The notes below the pieces were generated by a model. It was not told where the DNA came from. It did not search any database and was given only the letters and a program-made list of their open reading frames with translations. This document shows positions 23,401 to 63,914 of a stretch of 64,000 nucleotides of DNA, piece by piece (position 1 is the first letter of the stretch; each line of letters opens with the position of its first letter). Made by a program: the position numbers and the translations under genes. Origin of the DNA: Escherichia phage PBM-3; sequence record PV053165. The stretch is one strand, 5' to 3'.

Positions 23401-26400
23401 AAACAGGCTATCGCTAAATCTGCTCTGGAATATGACCAGCGTGAAGGTGCTACCGATGACCTGTTACGTGTTGGTGCTGAACAGATTGAACGTAACCTGC
23501 GTAATATTGCTCTGGGTGTAGATATTCGTCACAAAGTAATGAACCAGGTACAGACTACTGTTGACCAGATGGCTGCTGTTGGTGCTCCTTATGTGAACAA
23601 CGGTAAAATCTCTCTGGAAGGTCTGACCGTAGACCAACAAGTAGCTAAGCTAAATGAACTGTTCGATGCTGAATTAAACAAACGTCGTGATGCAGTACGT
23701 GCTGCTAAAGTAGAACCAGTGAAAGAAGTGCCAGCAATGGAACAGGTTGGTCGTGTACTGAAGTCTGGTGTACGCCTACTGTCTAATACTGCTATCTCTA
23801 AGCTGGCTAAAGAGATGTCTCCGGAACAGCAAGCAGTACTGAAAGAAGTACAGAAATCCCTTGCTGCTAAAGATTATAAGGTTGTTTACGGTACACCTTC
23901 CCAACTGGATGCTTATGCTATTGAGAAGAATATTACTCGCCCAGCACCAGAAGATATTGAAGCTGCTGAAGCTGGTAATGCGTATGGTTGGACTAACTTT
24001 GAAGATAAGACCATCTACTTAGTTACCCCTTCCTTAGAGACTCTGGTTCATGAATTGGTGCATGCTTCTACTTTTGAATCTGTACTGGCTCACTATGAGG
24101 GTACTCCTAATGAAGCGGTCCAGAACATTGAAGACCTGATGAACCAGTTCCGTGCTCTGGATGTTAAGGATGAATCCCCGGCAGTTCGGGAAGCATATGC
24201 AGATGCTCTTAATACTATTAACGGTCATCTATCTAATGGCTTCATTGAGCCAGCAATGGCTAAAGCTGCTGCACTGAATGAGTACATGGCATGGGGTTTA
24301 ACTAACCGTGAACTGATTAGTAAGCAGAAGAAAACCACTGCACTGAAGACTATGGTTCAGGCTGTATATGAAGCAATCAAGCGTCTGGTATTTGGGCGTA
24401 AGAAAGCACCAGCTAATGCAGATGATATGTTCTCTGGCTTACTGTTTAACTCGTCCGTAGTTATGCGTGGGCAAGCTCCTACTGCTGCTGTAGCCAAAGA
24501 TACTACTCTGTTCCATAACAAAACGTATGGTGACAATACTCGTCTGGAAGAGCTAGGGAAAACCTTCGATAAACTGATTACTGACTACATTGGTTCTGAA
24601 CCAGTACAGCAAGTAATTCGTAAAGGTAAGTTCTCTGATGCAGTGGTTAATGCGACTAAAGTAACTCGTGATGTTCAGGCTCATGGCTTCACTATGAATA
24701 TGCAGGAACAACGTCTCTTTACTAACATTGTTGCTGCACTGGCTACTGAAGCTGCTATTAATCCTGCTGCTCTGGCTCGTGCACAGGAATACTACACACA
24801 TGTTACTAAGAACCTGACCGTTGAGTCATTCATGGCTGACCCAGATAGTACTAACCCTGCTGACCGTTACTATGCACAGCAGAAGTTCGATACCATCATG
24901 GGTGCTAACAACATTGAGTTTGATGCACAAGGCCGTTCTTCCTTACTGCCTACCTTTGTTGGTCTGGCAATGGTAAGTGAAGAAGTGCGTAAAGTACTGG
25001 CTGACATTCCTGTTATGAAAGTAGACAAGAAATCTGGCAATACCGCTGATGCAATGCTGACTAACATCGGTACTGCTGCAATGGCTAGTCTGAATGCTCG
25101 TGTAGCAGGAGATACTAAAGCTACCAACGTACAGGAAGGTATGGATGCACTGGCTCAGACAATCATGCAGACGAGTCTCAATGCGCAGTCCTTCTATGAT
25201 TCCATTGCTACTCCTAGTGGTAATGCTATCGACCGTGCTAACCAGTATCTGGTGGATTCTATTGATGTACTGTCTACCCGTGCTTTAGAGGGTGCTCGTG
25301 AAGTTGCAGCTAATACCAAGAACCCGTTGGTTAAAGGTGCTGCTCATGCTGCACAACTAATAGCTGCTATTGCTACAGAGAAAAATGGTGCAATCGTAGC
25401 TGAGGGTGTTATGGCTGCAATGAACCAGGGTAAGGTATGGCAACCTTTCCATGACCTGGTTAATGACTTAACTGGTCGTACTAAGAGCAATGCTTCTGTA
25501 TATGATTTGATTAAAGCAGTGCGTGCACAGGTACAGGCTGACCGTCAGCAGTTCCGTGAACATTTGCCTACCACTATTGCATCTAAGTTCAGCCGTAAGC
25601 TTACTAATGATGAGTGGAAAGCAATGCATACCGGTATGGGTAAAACCGACTTAGCTGTTCTGCGTGACACTATGTCTCTGGGTGAAATTCGTGACTTGCT
25701 GACTGACCAAAAGATTGTTGACCGTGAAGTGAATAAGCTGGAAGCAGATTTGCAGAAACAAGCAGGACGTAACTGGCCTTTGATTAGCCGTAAATCTAAG
25801 CAACTGGCTCAGTACATGATTAATGGCACAGTTGGTAATAACTTGCTGCGTAATGCTACTGCAATCTCTCGTATGCTGGGTGAACGACAGGCTGCACGTT
25901 CTACTGTAGATGTAGCTCAACTGGATAAACTGATTACTCTGTATGCACTGGAAGCAATGAGTAAGACTGACCGTGAGATGTTATCTTCACTGGCTCAGAC
26001 AGAGATTGAAGGCATGGACTTCGCTACTTCTTATCTGGTTGGTCAGCGTAAAGATGAAATGGCTAAAGCCAAATCTGATACTCGTGCAACTCTGAACCAG
26101 TACAAAGGGTATATTCCTGGTGAGACTAAACAGGGTGTTAACTTGATTGTTGCTGAAGATAGTCAGTTTGCTGATTTGATTGAGAAGTCCTATGTACGTC
26201 TGGGTACTTATCAGGGTAGCTCTGCTAATCGTGGTCCAGCACGTAGCTACTACTTTGCACCGGTACAGGCACAGGCTCCATTCTCGCAAGGTATCTTACA
26301 GAACGTTCGCAATACTGCTGGTGGTGTAGACCTTGGTACAGGCTTTACGATGGGTACAATGGTAGCTGGTCGTATCACTGACAAGCCTTCTGTAGACCGT

Positions 26401-56554: not shown

Positions 56555-57772
56555 TTAACTTAATGCATAATCCGTTTCAAGAATGTCCTGCCAGAGGCTG
56601 TCATCCAGCTTACCAGCAGAGAACTCTTGCCCCAGTACTTGAGACAGAATGAAGCCCAGTAAGTCACTCTTAGCAATGTCAGACAGAATCTGATTGTACT
56701 GACGACGCAGGTCATTACCATAGTTAGGGTGGCAACGGAAGCAATCATGTACAGTCATTACAGGGAATGGTTTCTTAGGCATAGTGTCGATCATATCTGC
56801 TACTACTTGACGGTCTACCAATGCAATAGTATTCGGGTCAAGGAAGTCTAGGATAGACAGCGACAGGAATCCTGACCTTTCATAATGATTCCAGATTTCC
56901 ATAGTCTTCTCTTGGTTCCCCTCAATAACGGGGTATTCACTTGGCCCGATATCGCACAGTTCCCGTACATAGGCAACCAGTTTAGGGTCGAAGTTACAAC
57001 GACGCAGCATCTCACGTACTACCATCCCATCAATAGAGTGAGTGATGTTAGCAGAGAGCATACGGGTCTTCTCTTCAGTACCCTGAACCATACGAGTGAT
57101 GTCAAATGGTTTACCCAAGAAGTTAACAGTCTGTACTTCAAGAACCATGACTTTAATGACAGCATGGAAGTTGTCAGGGAGTACCCATATGTAACGGTTA
57201 GCATCCGGGTTACCACATTGCAGTAAGAACTTGTTAAGTGCCCAAGGACCACTTGCAACTGTTTCCATTACATTTTCAAAAGTCTTGAGACGGATACCTT
57301 CCCCGAATACTTCTTTAGGTTTGGCTTCTGAACCGTAGAATGCAGTCATAACTGCCTGCTTGGTATCACTGCGTTTAATACGGGATGCTTCACCAAGGAT
57401 GTCCAGCATCTTGTGATATATAACTGTATAAGCATCACGTCGTAATGGCTTACCATTCTCTCCCATGTAATTAACTACGTTACACAGTTCAGCAGCAGAG
57501 CGGTCACCAGTCAGGCAGGCCAGTAACTGCAAGCCTGATGATGTAGCATCCAGGGCTACGGCATATCCGATAGGCTTACCAGCTTTCATATCTTTCCATG
57601 CGTTTACACCAGCATAGAACAGTGCAGATTCCTCAGCTTCATCTACCAGATTAAGCAAGTTAGCTTCATTCTCATCGAACCAAGCAATACGCTCATCCCA
57701 GGTCTTTTTATCCAGACCATAGTTATTGGCAATATCTACTTTCAGGTATTCACGAGCGGTTAACAGTTGCAT
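56555..57772 (-). CDS. Phage RNA polymerase II, catalytic (C-terminal-half) subunit, T7-like
   Basis: T7-RNAP-family palm motifs: ALDATSSGLQ (motif A), RSDTKQAVMTAFYGS (motif B, K-x7-YG), VMTVHDCF (motif C). 405 aa, matching the larger subunit of a split RNAP II. Confidence 0.8.
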   Translation of the reverse strand: MQLLTAREYLKVDIANNYGLDKKTWDERIAWFDENEANLLNLVDEAEESALFYAGVNAWKDMKAGKPIGYAVALDATSSGLQLLACLTGDRSAAELCNVVNYMGENGKPLRRDAYTVIYHKMLDILGEASRIKRSDTKQAVMTAFYGSEAKPKEVFGEGIRLKTFENVMETVASGPWALNKFLLQCGNPDANRYIWVLPDNFHAVIKVMVLEVQTVNFLGKPFDITRMVQGTEEKTRMLSANITHSIDGMVVREMLRRCNFDPKLVAYVRELCDIGPSEYPVIEGNQEKTMEIWNHYERSGFLSLSILDFLDPNTIALVDRQVVADMIDTMPKKPFPVMTVHDCFRCHPNYGNDLRRQYNQILSDIAKSDLLGFILSQVLGQEFSAGKLDDSLWQDILETDYALS

Positions 57773-57829: not shown

Positions 57830-58069
57830 TTAGCCAGCATTAAATGATGACAATACTATTCCTGGTTCCACACCTTCTGTGGCAATACCCAGGTACTCGA
57901 CGTGCACTTTATCTGGGGAAGAACACCAAGCGGAAGATAGATTCCATTCTCCGTCTGGATTAATAAGGCGAGCTTCTTCCTTAGTTGTAGTAGCTACCAC
58001 TGCGGAATCGTATGTATCCCATCCTGTATTCTCTTCCTGGCTAATGAGCCATAGTTTTAACCTACTCAT
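57830..58069 (-). CDS. Hypothetical small protein between the two RNAP II subunit genes
   Basis: 79-aa ORF. Confidence 0.3.
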   Translation of the reverse strand: MSRLKLWLISQEENTGWDTYDSAVVATTTKEEARLINPDGEWNLSSAWCSSPDKVHVEYLGIATEGVEPGIVLSSFNAG

Positions 58070-58880
58070 CGTTTACTAACTCCTTATCAGCGAACTCCAG
58101 TACAGCTTTGTTGTAGCTGGTTCCCTGATAGTTGATGTGATAGCCCTGAGCGTAAGTACGCCCACGTTTGTCATATTTGTGACCCAGTGAGAAGTTATTA
58201 CCTTCTTTGGTCACTAACTCCATTACTTCCTTAGCGGTACGGCTGTACTTCTCAAAGGCTTTAACACGTTTCTCGTATTCCTGACGGGTTTCACCCTCTT
58301 TGGGCTTATCCATATTAGGACGAGAGTCTTTTACATAGTTAGCAACGTCCCAGTTGATACTTAGACGCTGATTATTCATACGGTTGATGTGATCAAGACA
58401 GACATCCATCTCATGATGGTTCTTCTTGAGGATGATACTTCCCCTGCTCTCGTAGTAACCTGTATCACGGTTACACAGAACAGGCTTAGGAGCACTTACG
58501 ATAGGTAATGGATACTGGAATGCTTCCAGTTCCATCTGAACATCTTCACTAATCTCGTAGATAACACCGAACTTGTCGATGGTAGGGTCATAGTTGAAGC
58601 AGTCATTCTCTGCCATCTTATACAGACAGTCAGCGATGTACTGAGCATCATCTGAATGGCTCATAAGAGAGCCAATCATAGTCTGAAGGTCAGCACGTTT
58701 ATGTAGGGCAATCTGCACCATTGCATCAATGAGCAGCTTATAATCAATTTCCAAATAGGCAGCGAATGCCTTAAAGTCAATTTCTTCGGAGTCCTCAAAT
58801 TCCTTCCTCATGCGAGGGAGTAATTGATTTTTGTTGAAAAGAATTTCGAGTTGCTTCTGATGTTCAATGGATGAGTACAT
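58062..58880 (-). CDS. Phage RNA polymerase II, N-terminal-half subunit, T7-like
   Basis: 272 aa; contains YDKRGRTY resembling a T7-RNAP N-terminal motif; lies upstream of the catalytic subunit gene. Confidence 0.6.
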   Translation of the reverse strand: MYSSIEHQKQLEILFNKNQLLPRMRKEFEDSEEIDFKAFAAYLEIDYKLLIDAMVQIALHKRADLQTMIGSLMSHSDDAQYIADCLYKMAENDCFNYDPTIDKFGVIYEISEDVQMELEAFQYPLPIVSAPKPVLCNRDTGYYESRGSIILKKNHHEMDVCLDHINRMNNQRLSINWDVANYVKDSRPNMDKPKEGETRQEYEKRVKAFEKYSRTAKEVMELVTKEGNNFSLGHKYDKRGRTYAQGYHINYQGTSYNKAVLEFADKELVNDE

Positions 58881-58913
58881 CGCTTATTCTCCTAAATGTG
58901 ATTAATAACCAAA

Positions 58914-58928
58914 AGCTGCGGAGCAGCT
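58914..58928 (-). promoter_or_regulatory. Candidate virion-RNAP promoter hairpin (GC-GGA-GC core, 3-nt loop)
   Basis: + strand AGCTGC-GGA-GCAGCT, preceded by CCAAAA; sits ~35 nt upstream of the RNAP II subunit gene start. Confidence 0.5.
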
Positions 58929-58933
58929 ATTAC

Positions 58934-59194
58934 CTAACGTTTAGTCCAAAAGGTAATACGAATACTGTTCTCTTGACCAAGGTAGTCAATACGTACATAT
59001 AAACCATTACCACTAAACTCGTTATTTTTCTTCTGGTAAGGCCATACCAGACTACGCATAGGTATTTTAATTAAACCAGATATGTGACCTAGTTTAGTAC
59101 GATCCTTTAGTTCGTTTTGTAATGCACAATAGATATCATGCCGTGTAAGTGCTCTGGCTCTGACTTGAGCAGTCCACAGTTCTTCATAAGTCAT
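58934..59194 (-). CDS. Hypothetical protein
   Basis: 86-aa ORF. Confidence 0.35.
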   Translation of the reverse strand: MTYEELWTAQVRARALTRHDIYCALQNELKDRTKLGHISGLIKIPMRSLVWPYQKKNNEFSGNGLYVRIDYLGQENSIRITFWTKR

Positions 59195-59196
59195 TA

Positions 59197-59547
59197 TTAA
59201 CTCCAGTAGTTGTAAGCATCGCCTAAGTGTTTACGCCATGCTTCGGGTAACAGTACATTTCCGGTTACATTAATGAACTGGTATGGGTCCAGGTAGTCAT
59301 TACTCATGACTTTGAAATCCCATTGTGGATTGGCAGATGCATAAGCAATAAAGCCCTCAATGAAGCCATAGATAGCACCCTCTTTGATACGGTTACCATT
59401 GCCATCTCTTACTGGAATAGCAAAGCTATTACCATAATGACCATAGGCCATACCCCAACGAGCACCATGCTTCTTATAAGCTAACTTGGCAGAAGCATTG
59501 GTATGTTGTCCTAGTGTATTGGTAGTGAATACGAATATTTCTTTCAT
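59197..59547 (-). CDS. Hypothetical protein
   Basis: 116-aa ORF with Gly/His-rich segment GQHTNASAKLAYKKHGARWGMAYGHYGNSFAIP. Confidence 0.35.
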   Translation of the reverse strand: MKEIFVFTTNTLGQHTNASAKLAYKKHGARWGMAYGHYGNSFAIPVRDGNGNRIKEGAIYGFIEGFIAYASANPQWDFKVMSNDYLDPYQFINVTGNVLLPEAWRKHLGDAYNYWS

Positions 59548-59550
59548 TAG

Positions 59551-59931
59551 TTACCCCTTTGGATTCTCCACAAAGTAGTTATACATAGCTTTTACTAGCT
59601 TCTCTTTAATAACCTCACCATGACATGGTTTCGGATAACAGAAGCACTGTAAGGCCAACCCTTTCTCATCAATGGCTTTATTACCAAGACGATTAAGTTC
59701 ATCCAATACAGCTTGATTCTTCCTCATGATTTGTTCATTAAGCCATACTCGATATTTGGCTATAACCTGTTCTCTTGAACCGTCTTTACCAATAACGAAT
59801 GGATTTCCTAATGGTGAACCACGTCCGATATACTCACCGGATTTACCGTGATGTTTATTAACAATGATAATTGGACGTGCAGCTACACCCAGCAAAGCAT
59901 TGGTGTCGTCCCCTAATGTAATAGTCTTCAT
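59551..59931 (-). CDS. DUF4326-like protein
   Basis: YIGRGSPLGNPF ... VIAKYRVWL ... CFCYPKPCHGEV matches the DUF4326 pattern as recalled. Confidence 0.5.
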   Translation of the reverse strand: MKTITLGDDTNALLGVAARPIIIVNKHHGKSGEYIGRGSPLGNPFVIGKDGSREQVIAKYRVWLNEQIMRKNQAVLDELNRLGNKAIDEKGLALQCFCYPKPCHGEVIKEKLVKAMYNYFVENPKG

Positions 59932-60170
59932 GGTTTTAATGCCTCAATAGATGTACTTACTTTACATACAGTAGTTCCTTCTAATGCGTCTATTTTGTAA
60001 GCTAACCCTCTTGTTAACATTACCCCGTTCATTACTTTATTAACCTCTTCTAGGTTAGGTACAGAAAATGCTTCATTTAATACGGGAGTTGTATGCCAAT
60101 CTATATAATCATCCGGCATAGCTATAAAATCATCCCCCTTTTTGAATACATAATATTCTTCATAAATCAT
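59928..60170 (-). CDS. Hypothetical protein
   Basis: 80-aa ORF, coupled. Confidence 0.3.
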   Translation of the reverse strand: MIYEEYYVFKKGDDFIAMPDDYIDWHTTPVLNEAFSVPNLEEVNKVMNGVMLTRGLAYKIDALEGTTVCKVSTSIEALKP

Positions 60171-60481
60171 GGCTTAAGTACCTGGAATGCGAACACAGGA
60201 CGTTTACTACGCCACTGGTTCATAGCTAGTTCACTAGTTTCAGAACCATCATGTAAGTCATAAATGAATGAGATTACATAGTCTGGTTCTTCCGGGAAGT
60301 TCTCTGTAGAGAATGGTAGACCTGATTCTTTAAGGATAGGAACCAGTGGAGATTCAGCATTGCAGTAGAGGGTAAATTCTTCATTGAATGCCTGGCTTGT
60401 TTGAGATACATAATCAATATTACGCATCATTTTATCTACATCTGTAAATGTAGAATCATGAACTACTAGAATAGTTTTCAT
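60167..60481 (-). CDS. Hypothetical protein
   Basis: 104-aa ORF, coupled. Confidence 0.3.
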   Translation of the reverse strand: MKTILVVHDSTFTDVDKMMRNIDYVSQTSQAFNEEFTLYCNAESPLVPILKESGLPFSTENFPEEPDYVISFIYDLHDGSETSELAMNQWRSKRPVFAFQVLKP

Positions 60482-60732
60482 ACCTTTCTCAATGTCCCAT
60501 AGATGTTATTATCGACAATACTCAAATCACAAAAACCAATTTCTTCTTGTCTCCCAGAGGATACCCAGATATTGTTTTCTGTTAGCTTAGGCTTCTTAGA
60601 GAATCCTATTAATGAGGTATTAGCACTTTTATATTGACGTGGTAATAAAGCTATATACTTAACCCAGTGAGGTACTTGAATGGTGTGCTTCATATATTCC
60701 ACAGTCTTGCCTGTAGGATATGTAATAATCAT
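60478..60732 (-). CDS. Hypothetical protein
   Basis: 84-aa ORF, coupled. Confidence 0.3.
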   Translation of the reverse strand: MIITYPTGKTVEYMKHTIQVPHWVKYIALLPRQYKSANTSLIGFSKKPKLTENNIWVSSGRQEEIGFCDLSIVDNNIYGTLRKV

Positions 60733-61089
60733 TTAGTACCTCACAACGTATACGGGTTTATTAAGCCTATACATGATATCAATCATGTGCTTGGTTCCTT
60801 TGGAATTACCATCCCAGAAACATACAGCAGCATCTGCAAATTCACCCATTTCCAGGTTACGTTTATAACCAGCACATTTACCATGTTTATCCCAGTTTGC
60901 TGGGAAATTATGAATAGGCATTTTGTTATTAGCCCATAGACTATATGCAAGCATATCTGCTCCACGAGCCATACCACATACTAATTCCGGACATTCAGGT
61001 ATATTCCCTGAATTTACTAACTTCTGTAATTCCTCAATCATAAGATTGGTATTTACGAAGTCTCTTCCACCAGCTACGATTAGTCTCAT
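60733..61089 (-). CDS. SLOG-family protein (DUF2493/YspA-like)
   Basis: LIVAGGRDF ... CGMARGADMLAYSLW ... FPANWDKHGKCAGYKRNLEM ... FWDGNSKGTKHMIDI matches the DUF2493 SLOG pattern as recalled. Confidence 0.45.
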   Translation of the reverse strand: MRLIVAGGRDFVNTNLMIEELQKLVNSGNIPECPELVCGMARGADMLAYSLWANNKMPIHNFPANWDKHGKCAGYKRNLEMGEFADAAVCFWDGNSKGTKHMIDIMYRLNKPVYVVRY

Positions 61090-61307
61090 TTCTGATACCC
61101 CTGTATATAGTTAATACGGCGAATACGTTGAGTAGATGCCTTAACAGCCATCTGTTGATTTTCTTCTTTACGCTGGTTTTCCAACAGCTTATCCCATTCT
61201 TTCTGGTTCCGTTGTTTCTGTAATATACGACTACAACGCTTATGATTAGCAACTCCTTTACGTTTGTTACATACAGGGCAAACACCATAATCAGTTGAGT
61301 ACATCAT
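61086..61307 (-). CDS. Small zinc-ribbon-like protein
   Basis: CPVC...HKRC Cys/His cluster in a basic 73-aa protein. Confidence 0.35.
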   Translation of the reverse strand: MMYSTDYGVCPVCNKRKGVANHKRCSRILQKQRNQKEWDKLLENQRKEENQQMAVKASTQRIRRINYIQGYQK

Positions 61308-61308
61308 T

Positions 61309-61554
61309 TTAGTTGAATCCGTAATAGTTAAAGTAAGGAGCCTTTCTGTCTTCAGTTGATTTGATAATCACTGATTCATCTAGAAAGTACATCTCATTAT
61401 TAATACGTACTTCTCTGTAAGATAACTTACCAAAGTTACGTATATATACCTTTCTAACATATACCTTACGGGTATGCTTTAGCATGAACCAGGCATACCC
61501 TTTGGGATTTACTAATATTGTTTTATCTACGATGACATCACTAAGATTGTTCAC
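61309..61554 (-). CDS. Hypothetical protein
   Basis: 81-aa ORF. Confidence 0.3.
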   Translation of the reverse strand: MNNLSDVIVDKTILVNPKGYAWFMLKHTRKVYVRKVYIRNFGKLSYREVRINNEMYFLDESVIIKSTEDRKAPYFNYYGFN

Positions 61555-61855
61555 CGAGTGCCTCCATCAGTATTTTACGAATAACGTTAACATCAGATTC
61601 AGTACCAATTAAACCAACAGGTTTACCTGTACTATCAGTTACAAAGCCAGCAATCCTTTCCATCTCTGCTGTAATTAACTTGTCACCATTAATAAGACGA
61701 TTACGAAGGTAAGCTTCATAAGCTACCTCTATATCTTCTACTGTGGTTCTTTCATTACGAGCAAATGGATTACTTAATGGGAATGGTAAATGTACCCGTA
61801 TATTCCTGTCAGCTACTTTAGCTTGGTGAGGAAGTATACATACTATTTCATTCAA
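61541..61855 (-). CDS. Divergent DUF4326-like paralogue lacking the Cys/His motif
   Basis: HLPFPLSNPF ... TVEDIEVAYEAYL ... GKPVGLIG parallels the GNPF and Y..WL blocks of the 59551..59931 protein but lacks the C-x-C-x-P-x2-C-H block. Confidence 0.3.
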   Translation of the reverse strand: MNEIVCILPHQAKVADRNIRVHLPFPLSNPFARNERTTVEDIEVAYEAYLRNRLINGDKLITAEMERIAGFVTDSTGKPVGLIGTESDVNVIRKILMEALGEQS

Positions 61856-61892
61856 GATTATTTCTCCTATTTAAATACATATCTAACTATTC

Positions 61893-61930
61893 AAAAATAA
61901 AAAATAGGAGCCTCCTATTGGAGGACTCCT
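61893..61930 (-). terminator. Strong rho-independent terminator
   Basis: On the - strand: AGGAGTCCTCC-AATA-GGAGGCTCCT followed by ATTTTTTATTTTT. Confidence 0.6.
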
Positions 61931-61932
61931 TA

Positions 61933-62061
61933 CTATTTGATACATGGATGATTGTAAGTAACAATCTTACGTACTGGTTCAGATGTCTGTTGCTTAGCAG
62001 CCAGACGTTCCTTCATCTTCTGTACGTCAGCTTTGGTTCCCATGATTAATGACTTACGCAT
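61933..62061 (-). CDS. Small hypothetical protein (42 aa, below the ORF-track cutoff)
   Basis: ATG at 62061 with GGAG ~10 nt upstream; ends just before the terminator at 61930. Confidence 0.25.
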   Translation of the reverse strand: MRKSLIMGTKADVQKMKERLAAKQQTSEPVRKIVTYNHPCIK

Positions 62062-62741: not shown

Positions 62742-62772
62742 AAAATAAAAGACTCCCCGAAGGGAGTCTAGT
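62742..62772 (-). terminator. Rho-independent terminator
   Basis: On the - strand: AGACTCCC-TTCG-GGGAGTCT followed by TTTATTTTT. Confidence 0.6.
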
Positions 62773-63162: not shown

Positions 63163-63274
63163 TTTGTACTCTCCAGATAAATGATTGTTTGATTTATGGG
63201 TTTGTCCGTCGGTGACTAAACCCAAGAAAAGACTTAAGATTTCAATGATTAGTGGATGCATTTAAATCATCCAT

Positions 63275-63291
63275 AAGACGCGGAGCGTCTT
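63275..63291 (-). promoter_or_regulatory. Candidate virion-RNAP promoter hairpin (GC-GGA-GC core, 3-nt loop)
   Basis: + strand AAGACGC-GGA-GCGTCTT with CCATAA immediately 5'; upstream of the 62779..63162 gene. Confidence 0.5.
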
Positions 63292-63857: not shown

Positions 63858-63899
63858 GATGATAGCTCCAATAGTTGATGATAGGACGACATGTCCATA

Positions 63900-63914
63900 A
63901 CATGCGGAGCATGT
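63900..63914 (-). promoter_or_regulatory. Candidate virion-RNAP promoter hairpin (GC-GGA-GC core, 3-nt loop)
   Basis: + strand ACATGC-GGA-GCATGT with CCATAA immediately 5'; ~45 nt upstream of the 63549..63857 gene start. Confidence 0.5.

Follow-up and report, generated by a model that had tools for sequence, protein, structure and literature searches.

Introduction

The association of DUF4326, SLOG, Macro and NADAR domains, together with a proposed activity, has already been published, and predictions tie these domains to nucleotide and ADP-ribose chemistry (PMC9503650 and, for jumbo phages, PMC7824862). DUF4326 domains have also been found fused to replication and restriction-modification components (PMC7824862), and SLOG domains to HNH, exonuclease and helicase domains (PMC9503650). 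Phage DruSM1 plated less well on a host with AVAST type III once its DprA/SLOG-like ORF83 had been deleted (bioRxiv 10.1101/2024.04.14.589459), and in ORF83 relatives from amoeba viruses the C-terminal domain is DUF4326 (bioRxiv 10.1101/2025.06.06.658234). Here we describe a cluster of small genes that encodes members of the same families as separate proteins in Escherichia phage PBM-3 (sequence record PV053165), of which a stretch of 64,000 nucleotides, referred to as the window, was analysed.

The window belongs to a Gamaleyavirus, an N4-like podovirus of the Schitoviridae. Its region 58900-62000 is 100% identical to Escherichia phages PBM-2 and UE-S5a, and 82-92% identical to many further G7C-like Gamaleyavirus phages. 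Every gene from 61855 down to 58934 lies on the minus strand, and the cluster sits directly upstream of the genes for the RNA polymerase II subunits, RNAP1 (58062-58880) and RNAP2 (56555-57772). An earlier note on this DNA had singled out two DUF4326-like proteins and a DUF2493/SLOG protein among tightly coupled open reading frames (ORFs). All three ORFs are present with the motifs it quoted, and the close packing is evident from four 4-nt ATGA-type overlaps (59928-59931, 60167-60170, 60478-60481 and 61086-61089) and one of 14 nt (61541-61554). What the note overlooked is the adjacent macro-like gene, the strongest additional clue to ADP-ribose (Table 1). The cluster ORFs are real genes, since they are kept in 78-94 N4-like phage records and are all under purifying selection (dN/dS 0.07-0.25 against phage 24-32N, the reference for all dN/dS values given here).

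Naming the proteins after their orthologues in phage N4, we tentatively read the cluster as an early protein set that binds or processes ADP-ribose- or nucleotide-derived molecules, in which the gp12-type DUF4326 protein would be a phosphate-processing enzyme and which would probably blunt NAD+/ADP-ribose-based defence. We place this reading slightly short of an even chance. It draws on domain fusions, predicted folds, conservation and published inference; the identification of the domains themselves is firm.

Intact and degenerate DUF4326 proteins

The assignment of the gp12-type protein to DUF4326 was borne out by profile search, with a Pfam match at E 7.6e-23 (81.4 bits against a cut-off of 25) and a match to phrog_464 at 8.1e-38. 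Across 52 diverse members of the family, Y60, L94, C96, C98, P100, C103 and H104 are invariant, while N25, G36, R37, L41, G42, N43, P44 and R53 are nearly so. The gp12-type protein carries all of these residues and contains both motif blocks, L-x-C-x-C-x-P-x2-C-H and G-R-G-S-P-L-G-N-P-F. In its AlphaFold2 model (pLDDT 94), C96 ends a strand formed by residues 92-96, and an 8-residue Cys/His loop then leads into a helix spanning residues 105-122. As modelled, the strand, the C96-x-C98-x-P-x2-C103-H104 loop and the helix have the layout of a cysteine phosphatase or rhodanese.

Weak matches of the Pfam family DUF488-N3a were found on the C-terminal region of DUF4326, whose best match was RapZ, an RNA-binding adaptor. 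Burroughs and Aravind (2023) reportedly speak of the 'RapZ-C-DUF488-DUF4326 clade' and predict DNA-end processing for part of it. The weak DUF488-N3a matches fit the published placement of DUF4326 in the rhodanese/phosphatase superfamily (RapZ-C-like fold). We hold the fold assignment with moderate confidence, because a Foldseek search of the DUF4326 model against the PDB returned nothing (best E 2.5). Sequence searches of the PDB with the DUF4326, SLOG and macro-like proteins, and with the DUF4326 and macro-like family profiles, gave nothing significant. The gp12-type protein is a predicted cysteine-dependent enzyme of this superfamily. Among the PHROGs matched by DUF4326 are some with the labels 'DNA repair protein' and 'NrdA-like'. 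The label 'NrdA-like ribonucleotide reductase' carried by relatives traces to the PHROG that matches the DUF4326 domain, and domain matches give it no support.

The second DUF4326-like protein, of the gp9 type, falls below the Pfam cut-off (E 0.024, 15.7 bits against 25), and BLASTP aligned it weakly with the intact copy (2e-6). Both copies nonetheless match one segment of phrog_464, the gp9-type protein at 4.3e-15, and an hhalign comparison of its 104-aa family profile with the profile of the 52 diverse DUF4326 proteins gave 98.1% and E 1.3e-13 over 87 columns. These two results make the claim of an intact and a degenerate paralogue correct, and by profile comparison the gp9-type protein is a true, very divergent DUF4326 homologue.

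In the profile alignment, C96 of the Cys/His loop is replaced by G84, the four residues C98-Y-P-K are deleted, and C103 and H104 correspond to S87 and D88. The residues that most likely hold a phosphate have changed as well, G36-R37 to H22-L23 and R53 to V39. Y46, L82 and the PLxNPF block are retained. The copy is not decaying, since its family has 29 invariant positions, a set of its own that includes R17, N18, R20, H22 and a VGLIG motif, and its dN/dS is 0.16. We therefore regard the gp9-type protein as a conserved, selectively maintained and catalytically dead pseudo-enzyme.

Members of the gp9 family turned up in N4-like phages only (38 clusters at 54% identity or above, 94 phage records). 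In Erwinia phage Fifi287, gp83 is the intact gene and gp82, its immediate successor, the dead copy; this arrangement points to an old tandem duplication preceding the split between Enquatrovirinae and Erskinevirinae. Phage 24-32N carries the dead paralogue with 93% identity at a site where no coding sequence is annotated (PV933157.1, stretch L002, 4445-4750). We found no earlier description of N4 gp9 as a dead DUF4326 paralogue.

The earlier note had interpreted the pair as an enzyme and a binding-only variant. By our analysis the second copy is certainly non-catalytic, and it is functional; the binding-only part finds no specific support in the sequence. A sponge for the ligand of the intact enzyme would be in keeping with homology across the whole domain, with the retained PLxNPF block, with strong conservation (29 invariant positions), with purifying selection and with the adjacency of the two genes in Fifi287. 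However, the active-site loop is shorter by 4 residues, and C96, C98, C103, H104, G36, R37 and R53 are all lost, which probably leaves no pocket for a phosphorylated ligand; we consider such a sponge distinctly unlikely. Because the residues expected to bind phosphate are missing, a new role for the non-catalytic copy, for example as a protein partner, appears at least as likely as binding of a phosphate ligand.

The SLOG and macro-like proteins

The DUF2493/SLOG assignment held in the Pfam search, in which the protein matched YAcAr (PF10686, the former DUF2493) at E 2.5e-10, with 40.4 bits against a threshold of 28.2. In an alignment with phage and fused homologues, G7, R9, G39, A41, G43, D45, G94 and G98 are invariant, and the glycine-rich N-terminal strand-loop, the GxARGxD motif and the C-terminal G-T are all present. 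Homologues occur in 1086 phage records. The DprA/Smf identity given by the GenBank label in PBM-2 and UE-S5a was rejected, the protein showing no match to Pfam DNA_processg_A at E <= 1. A 'GTP-binding domain' label in relatives traces to a PHROG that matches the SLOG domain and finds no support in domain matches.

DruSM1 ORF83 is possibly a related SLOG, and may offer a weaker lead toward an anti-defence role. No homologue of the window SLOG was found in the first 50 kb of the related Queuovirinae phage 9g; Providencia phage PSTCR7 does not belong to the Queuovirinae. Outside the Schitoviridae, a further SLOG-macro neighbourhood was observed in Escherichia phage FS2B (Kuravirus), where the gene with the annotation 'Appr-1-p processing enzyme family' (macro domain) is followed after ~1.2 kb, in the downstream direction, by a SLOG homologue with 38% identity (stretch L003, 902-1252).

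The gp14-type gene adjoins the DUF4326 gene. Its product matches NCBIfam NF049995, 'A1S_2505 family phage non-structural protein', with 83.6 bits against a cut-off of 45 (E 1e-23). The Pfam Macro family (PF01661) gave no match at E 1, nor did any other Pfam family match. An AlphaFold2 model built from a 47-sequence alignment reached a pLDDT of 95, and the structures nearest to it were DarG (the best match), viral macro domains, TARG1, Poa1p and the macro domain of ThsA. According to this model, the protein adopts a macro fold. The consensus of the A1S_2505 family contains the glycine-rich motifs FGSNxAGxHGAGAA and TRIGCGLAG, placed where we would expect the two ligand loops of a macro domain, and both are kept in N4 gp14 and in the proteins of Klebsiella phage KP8 and Fifi287. 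No functional literature on the family was found. Existing annotations of relatives of the cluster proteins already include DUF4326, DprA/DUF2493, ADP-ribosylglycohydrolase and 'macro domain Poa1p'.

Domain fusions

A scan of 1.84 billion representatives yielded 5952 DUF4326 proteins at E <= 0.001, from which the best 150 were taken. Among these, 23 are longer than 200 aa. Their fusion partners are YAcAr (five proteins), NADAR (three), and YpsA, cpYpsA, Macro and DUF7831 (one each); two others gave weak DprA-like SLOG matches and nine showed no second domain. SLOG, NADAR or Macro is fused to DUF4326 in 11 of the 23. The fusion proteins are metagenomic, and both domain orders occur. Over its full length, the window SLOG is 35% identical to the SLOG half of a SLOG-DUF4326 fusion (E 4e-20) and 33% identical to that of a DUF4326-SLOG fusion (E 3e-17). 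Repeated fusion among DUF4326, SLOG, NADAR and Macro is hard to explain without functional coupling, and the link to nucleotide or ADP-ribose chemistry that the earlier note had drawn agrees with these fusions and with the published predictions (PMC9503650, PMC7824862).

Instead of small molecules, the targets of the proteins might be the ends or modifications of nucleic acids, from which they would remove 2'/3'-phosphates or ADP-ribose, or they might take part in phage DNA replication or repair. DarG, the best match of the macro-like model, strips ADP-ribose from DNA; RapZ, the protein that DUF4326 matches best, is an adaptor that binds RNA; and the PHROG labels of DUF4326, the published fusions of DUF4326 and SLOG to replication, restriction-modification, nuclease and helicase partners, and the DNA-end processing reportedly predicted for part of the clade are consistent with such a role. 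In contrast, the fusions closest to the window DUF4326 involve SLOG, NADAR and Macro, not nucleases or polymerases, the SLOG protein lacks a Pfam DprA match even at E 1, and the macro-like protein of this phage lacks one conserved loop. On balance, we consider action on nucleic acids rather unlikely.

Conservation and transcription of the block

Synteny was compared in five phages (UE-S5a, 24-32N, N4, KP8 and Fifi287) using local tblastn and GenBank tables. The N4 orthologues are gp9 (73% identity), gp11 (82%), gp12 (86%) and gp14 (45%), and no match to the SLOG gene was found by tblastn within the first 8 kb of N4. KP8 and Fifi287 possess all of the gp9/gp11/gp12/gp14-type genes plus the SLOG gene, and the four-gene set is retained across three genera or subfamilies (N4, KP8, Fifi287). 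Gene order varies among the genera, with variable small ORFs between the conserved members. The literature searched held no functional studies of N4 gp9, gp11, gp12 or gp14.

This pattern could also arise if the genes were independent accessories inherited as a block of the Schitoviridae early region, sharing no pathway and with paralogues that do not cooperate. The lack of a SLOG gene in N4, the differing order with interspersed variable ORFs, and a dead paralogue devoid of every residue expected to contact a phosphate ligand would all be in line with this. The same domains are nevertheless fused repeatedly, in both orders, in unrelated metagenomic proteins, and we regard independence as rather unlikely.

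The cluster lies between two copies of an N4-type hairpin early promoter motif, built from a stem, a TCC loop and T[AT]TGG (Table 1), and a third copy lies further upstream. Elsewhere in the 64 kb, the motif has a single further match, with one mismatch and on the opposite strand (26219-26234). The annotated hairpin early promoters of KP8 share the motif GCTCCGC-N6-TGG, which the three window copies match exactly. The assignment to the early region made in the earlier note stands as far as position goes, that is, by the three promoter motifs on the same strand and by synteny with the left end of N4.

Proposed function of the protein set

According to our preferred reading, the conserved left-end (early) block of N4-like phages would be a toolkit for nucleotide-sugar and ADP-ribose-derived molecules, carried as separate small proteins. 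The gp12-type DUF4326 protein would remove or transfer a ribose-attached phosphate in ADP-ribose derivatives or their breakdown products, and the YAcAr SLOG would bind, and possibly cleave, the nucleotide part of ADP-ribose-type molecules. The gp14-type protein, with its predicted macro fold, falls into a family made for holding ADP-ribose; here, it is probably no standard ADP-ribose hydrolase, because one glycine-rich loop has been lost in this lineage. The gp9-type protein, as an ancient dead DUF4326 duplicate, would more likely serve some other protein as its partner or regulator than bind a phosphate ligand. Expressed early, these proteins would most plausibly neutralise NAD+/ADP-ribose-based host immunity, acting on its signals, toxic metabolites or ADP-ribose marks.

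Several observations weigh against this proposal. The window macro-like protein and its closest relatives have an 8-residue deletion of the second glycine-rich motif (TRIGCGLAG), and in the window protein the first motif reads FTTNTLGQHTNASA, with FTTN..HTNASA in place of FGSN..HGAGAA; the loss of loop 2 and the mutated loop 1 weaken the ADP-ribose argument for this genome. LOG phosphoribohydrolases carry a PGGxGTxxE motif with a catalytic Glu. At this site the window SLOG has DGNSKGTKHM, with M102, invariant in a small alignment, at the position of the Glu, and a sensor or binding role is for this reason at least as likely as hydrolysis. In the gp12-type protein, the three Cys and the His could form a metal site instead of a catalytic loop. 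The SLOG, gp9-, gp12- and gp14-type proteins are not an obligate unit, since N4 manages without the SLOG, and their co-location could be no more than synteny handed down with the early region. Between the upstream promoter and the cluster are two terminator-like features, GC hairpins with T tracts (62750-62769 and 61911-61924, minus strand), so that transcription of the cluster would depend on read-through or on a promoter that escaped recognition; early expression by read-through, as in the N4 early region, is plausible. PADLOC gave no match, and no ADP-ribosyltransferase ('writer') is annotated in the near-identical UE-S5a, whose ORFs themselves were not scanned. Finally, the literature searched contained no demonstrated activity for any DUF4326, YAcAr or A1S_2505 member. 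The view of the earlier note that the functions are essentially unknown is thus accurate for experiment and not for prediction, given the published association and proposed activity.

Take-over of the host by remodelling of the nucleotide pool would require a LOG-like SLOG that cleaves nucleotides and a DUF4326 protein that dephosphorylates sugar phosphates. The EVADES preprint proposes an AMP phosphoribohydrolase for the related ORF83 (10.1101/2025.06.06.658234), and nucleotide-metabolism genes, such as those for dCTP deaminase and ThyX, are annotated in UE-S5a. Nonetheless, the window SLOG and its relatives have Met in place of the LOG catalytic Glu, and the Macro and NADAR partners suggest ADP-ribose rather than bulk nucleotides, making this scenario highly improbable.

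The trimmed macro-like protein is under strong purifying selection (dN/dS 0.07), and we found no earlier description of such a loop-deleted macro-like protein in Gamaleyavirus. The gp9 family, and perhaps also this trimmed protein, might represent pseudo-enzymes that N4-family phages have turned into a new class of immune-evasion proteins, which would work beside an active gp12 as decoys or inhibitors binding a host NAD+/ADP-ribose-dependent defence protein, or as sponges for its signal; we judge this very unlikely.

Should the preferred reading, an early set directed at ADP-ribose- or nucleotide-derived molecules, be true, the model phage N4 and many of its therapy-used relatives would carry early enzymes against NAD+/ADP-ribose-based immunity, and N4 gp12, being small, would lend itself to establishing a first activity in the large DUF4326 family. 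The live/dead pair of gp12 and gp9 offers ready comparisons for genetics, as do the SLOG gene and the macro loop, both of which vary naturally.

Other genes of the block

Table 1. Positions of the cluster genes and early promoter motifs in the window.
Feature	Position	Strand	Basis or remarks
Intact DUF4326 protein, 126 aa, N4 gp12 orthologue	59551-59931	-	Pfam PF14216
Catalytically dead paralogue of the DUF4326 protein, N4 gp9 orthologue, 104 aa, TTG start	61541-61855	-	phrog_464, hhalign
Stand-alone YAcAr (former DUF2493) SLOG protein, 118 aa	60733-61089	-	Pfam PF10686; absent from N4
Predicted macro-fold A1S_2505 family protein, 116 aa, N4 gp14 orthologue, without TRIGCGLAG loop	59197-59547	-	NF049995, AlphaFold2
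104-aa protein, N4 gp11 orthologue	60167-60481	-	phrog_7827
86-aa ORF, last gene ahead of RNAP1 promoter	58934-59194	-	phrog_14487 2.3e-58, no Pfam match
80-aa ORF	59928-60170	-	no Pfam or PHROG match
84-aa ORF	60478-60732	-	phrog_1972 4.7e-19
73-aa ORF, CxxC...HxxC motif	61086-61307	-	phrog_6887 6.2e-42
81-aa ORF, GTG start, variable	61309-61554	-	phrog_10124 2.1e-36
N4-type hairpin early promoter motif, AGCTGC-TCC-GCAGCT TTTGG, before RNAP1, downstream cluster end	58909-58924	-	exact match
N4-type hairpin early promoter motif before gp2-like gene, nearest upstream of cluster	63271-63286	-	exact match
N4-type hairpin early promoter motif before gp1-like gene	63895-63910	-	exact match

In each of the five phages, the gp11-type gene precedes the DUF4326 gene on its upstream side, and directly so in N4, KP8 and Fifi287; the ORF between the two encodes 80 aa in the window and UE-S5a and 74 aa in 24-32N. 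The dN/dS of the gp11-type protein is ~0. Its hhalign comparison with the SLOG profile covered 92 columns, end to end and with collinear strands, and was non-significant (E 0.031, probability 1.6%). The protein might be a degenerate SLOG, which would give a second live/dead pair. An 'antirepressor' label for this ORF was rejected, since phrog_7827 is of unknown function and domain matches give the label no support.

In the 73-aa product, a very basic tail comes after the CxxC...HxxC motif CPVCNKRKGVANHKRC, and Pfam gives a weak Rep_1 match (E 0.05). A small protein that binds zinc and nucleic acids is one possibility. The 80-aa and 81-aa ORFs have a counterpart in UE-S5a only, with none in N4, KP8, Fifi287 or 24-32N, which indicates that the block gains and loses small cargo genes among its conserved members.

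Between the RNA polymerase II subunit genes, the window has a 79-aa ORF (57830-58069, minus strand). The same slot is occupied in UE-S5a by a 507-nt HNH homing endonuclease gene (stretch L001, 2657-3163), and 24-32N has a 240-nt ORF of matching size just past its RNAP1 gene. The slot looks like a variable insertion site within an essential gene pair.

Comparison with known systems

The cluster is not a new kind of system, and our findings mostly confirm existing annotations and published comparative genomics. Phage N4 shares the gp9, gp11, gp12 and gp14 orthologues in the same order upstream of its RNAPII genes gp15 and gp16, but it has no SLOG gene, and its gp14 looks intact. The window SLOG resembles the YAcAr/DUF2493 SLOGs widespread in phages, a group that includes TIR-SLOG (Thoeris-type) sensor domains and the DprA/SLOG-like ORF83 of DruSM1, reported as anti-AVAST type III, in matching Pfam YAcAr above threshold, and it agrees with the SLOG halves of the DUF4326 fusions in size and in its Gly-rich, GxARGxD and GT motifs. 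It is not a DprA protein by Pfam and lacks the LOG catalytic Glu. The macro-like protein departs from the DarG, TARG1, Poa1p and viral macro type in having only 116 aa, with loop 2 deleted and loop 1 substituted. In contrast to the published DUF4326 systems, for which we found no such description, a dead paralogue accompanies the putative enzyme here. Finally, while the published associations of DUF4326, SLOG, Macro and NADAR are fusions, the partners in this phage are encoded by separate genes.

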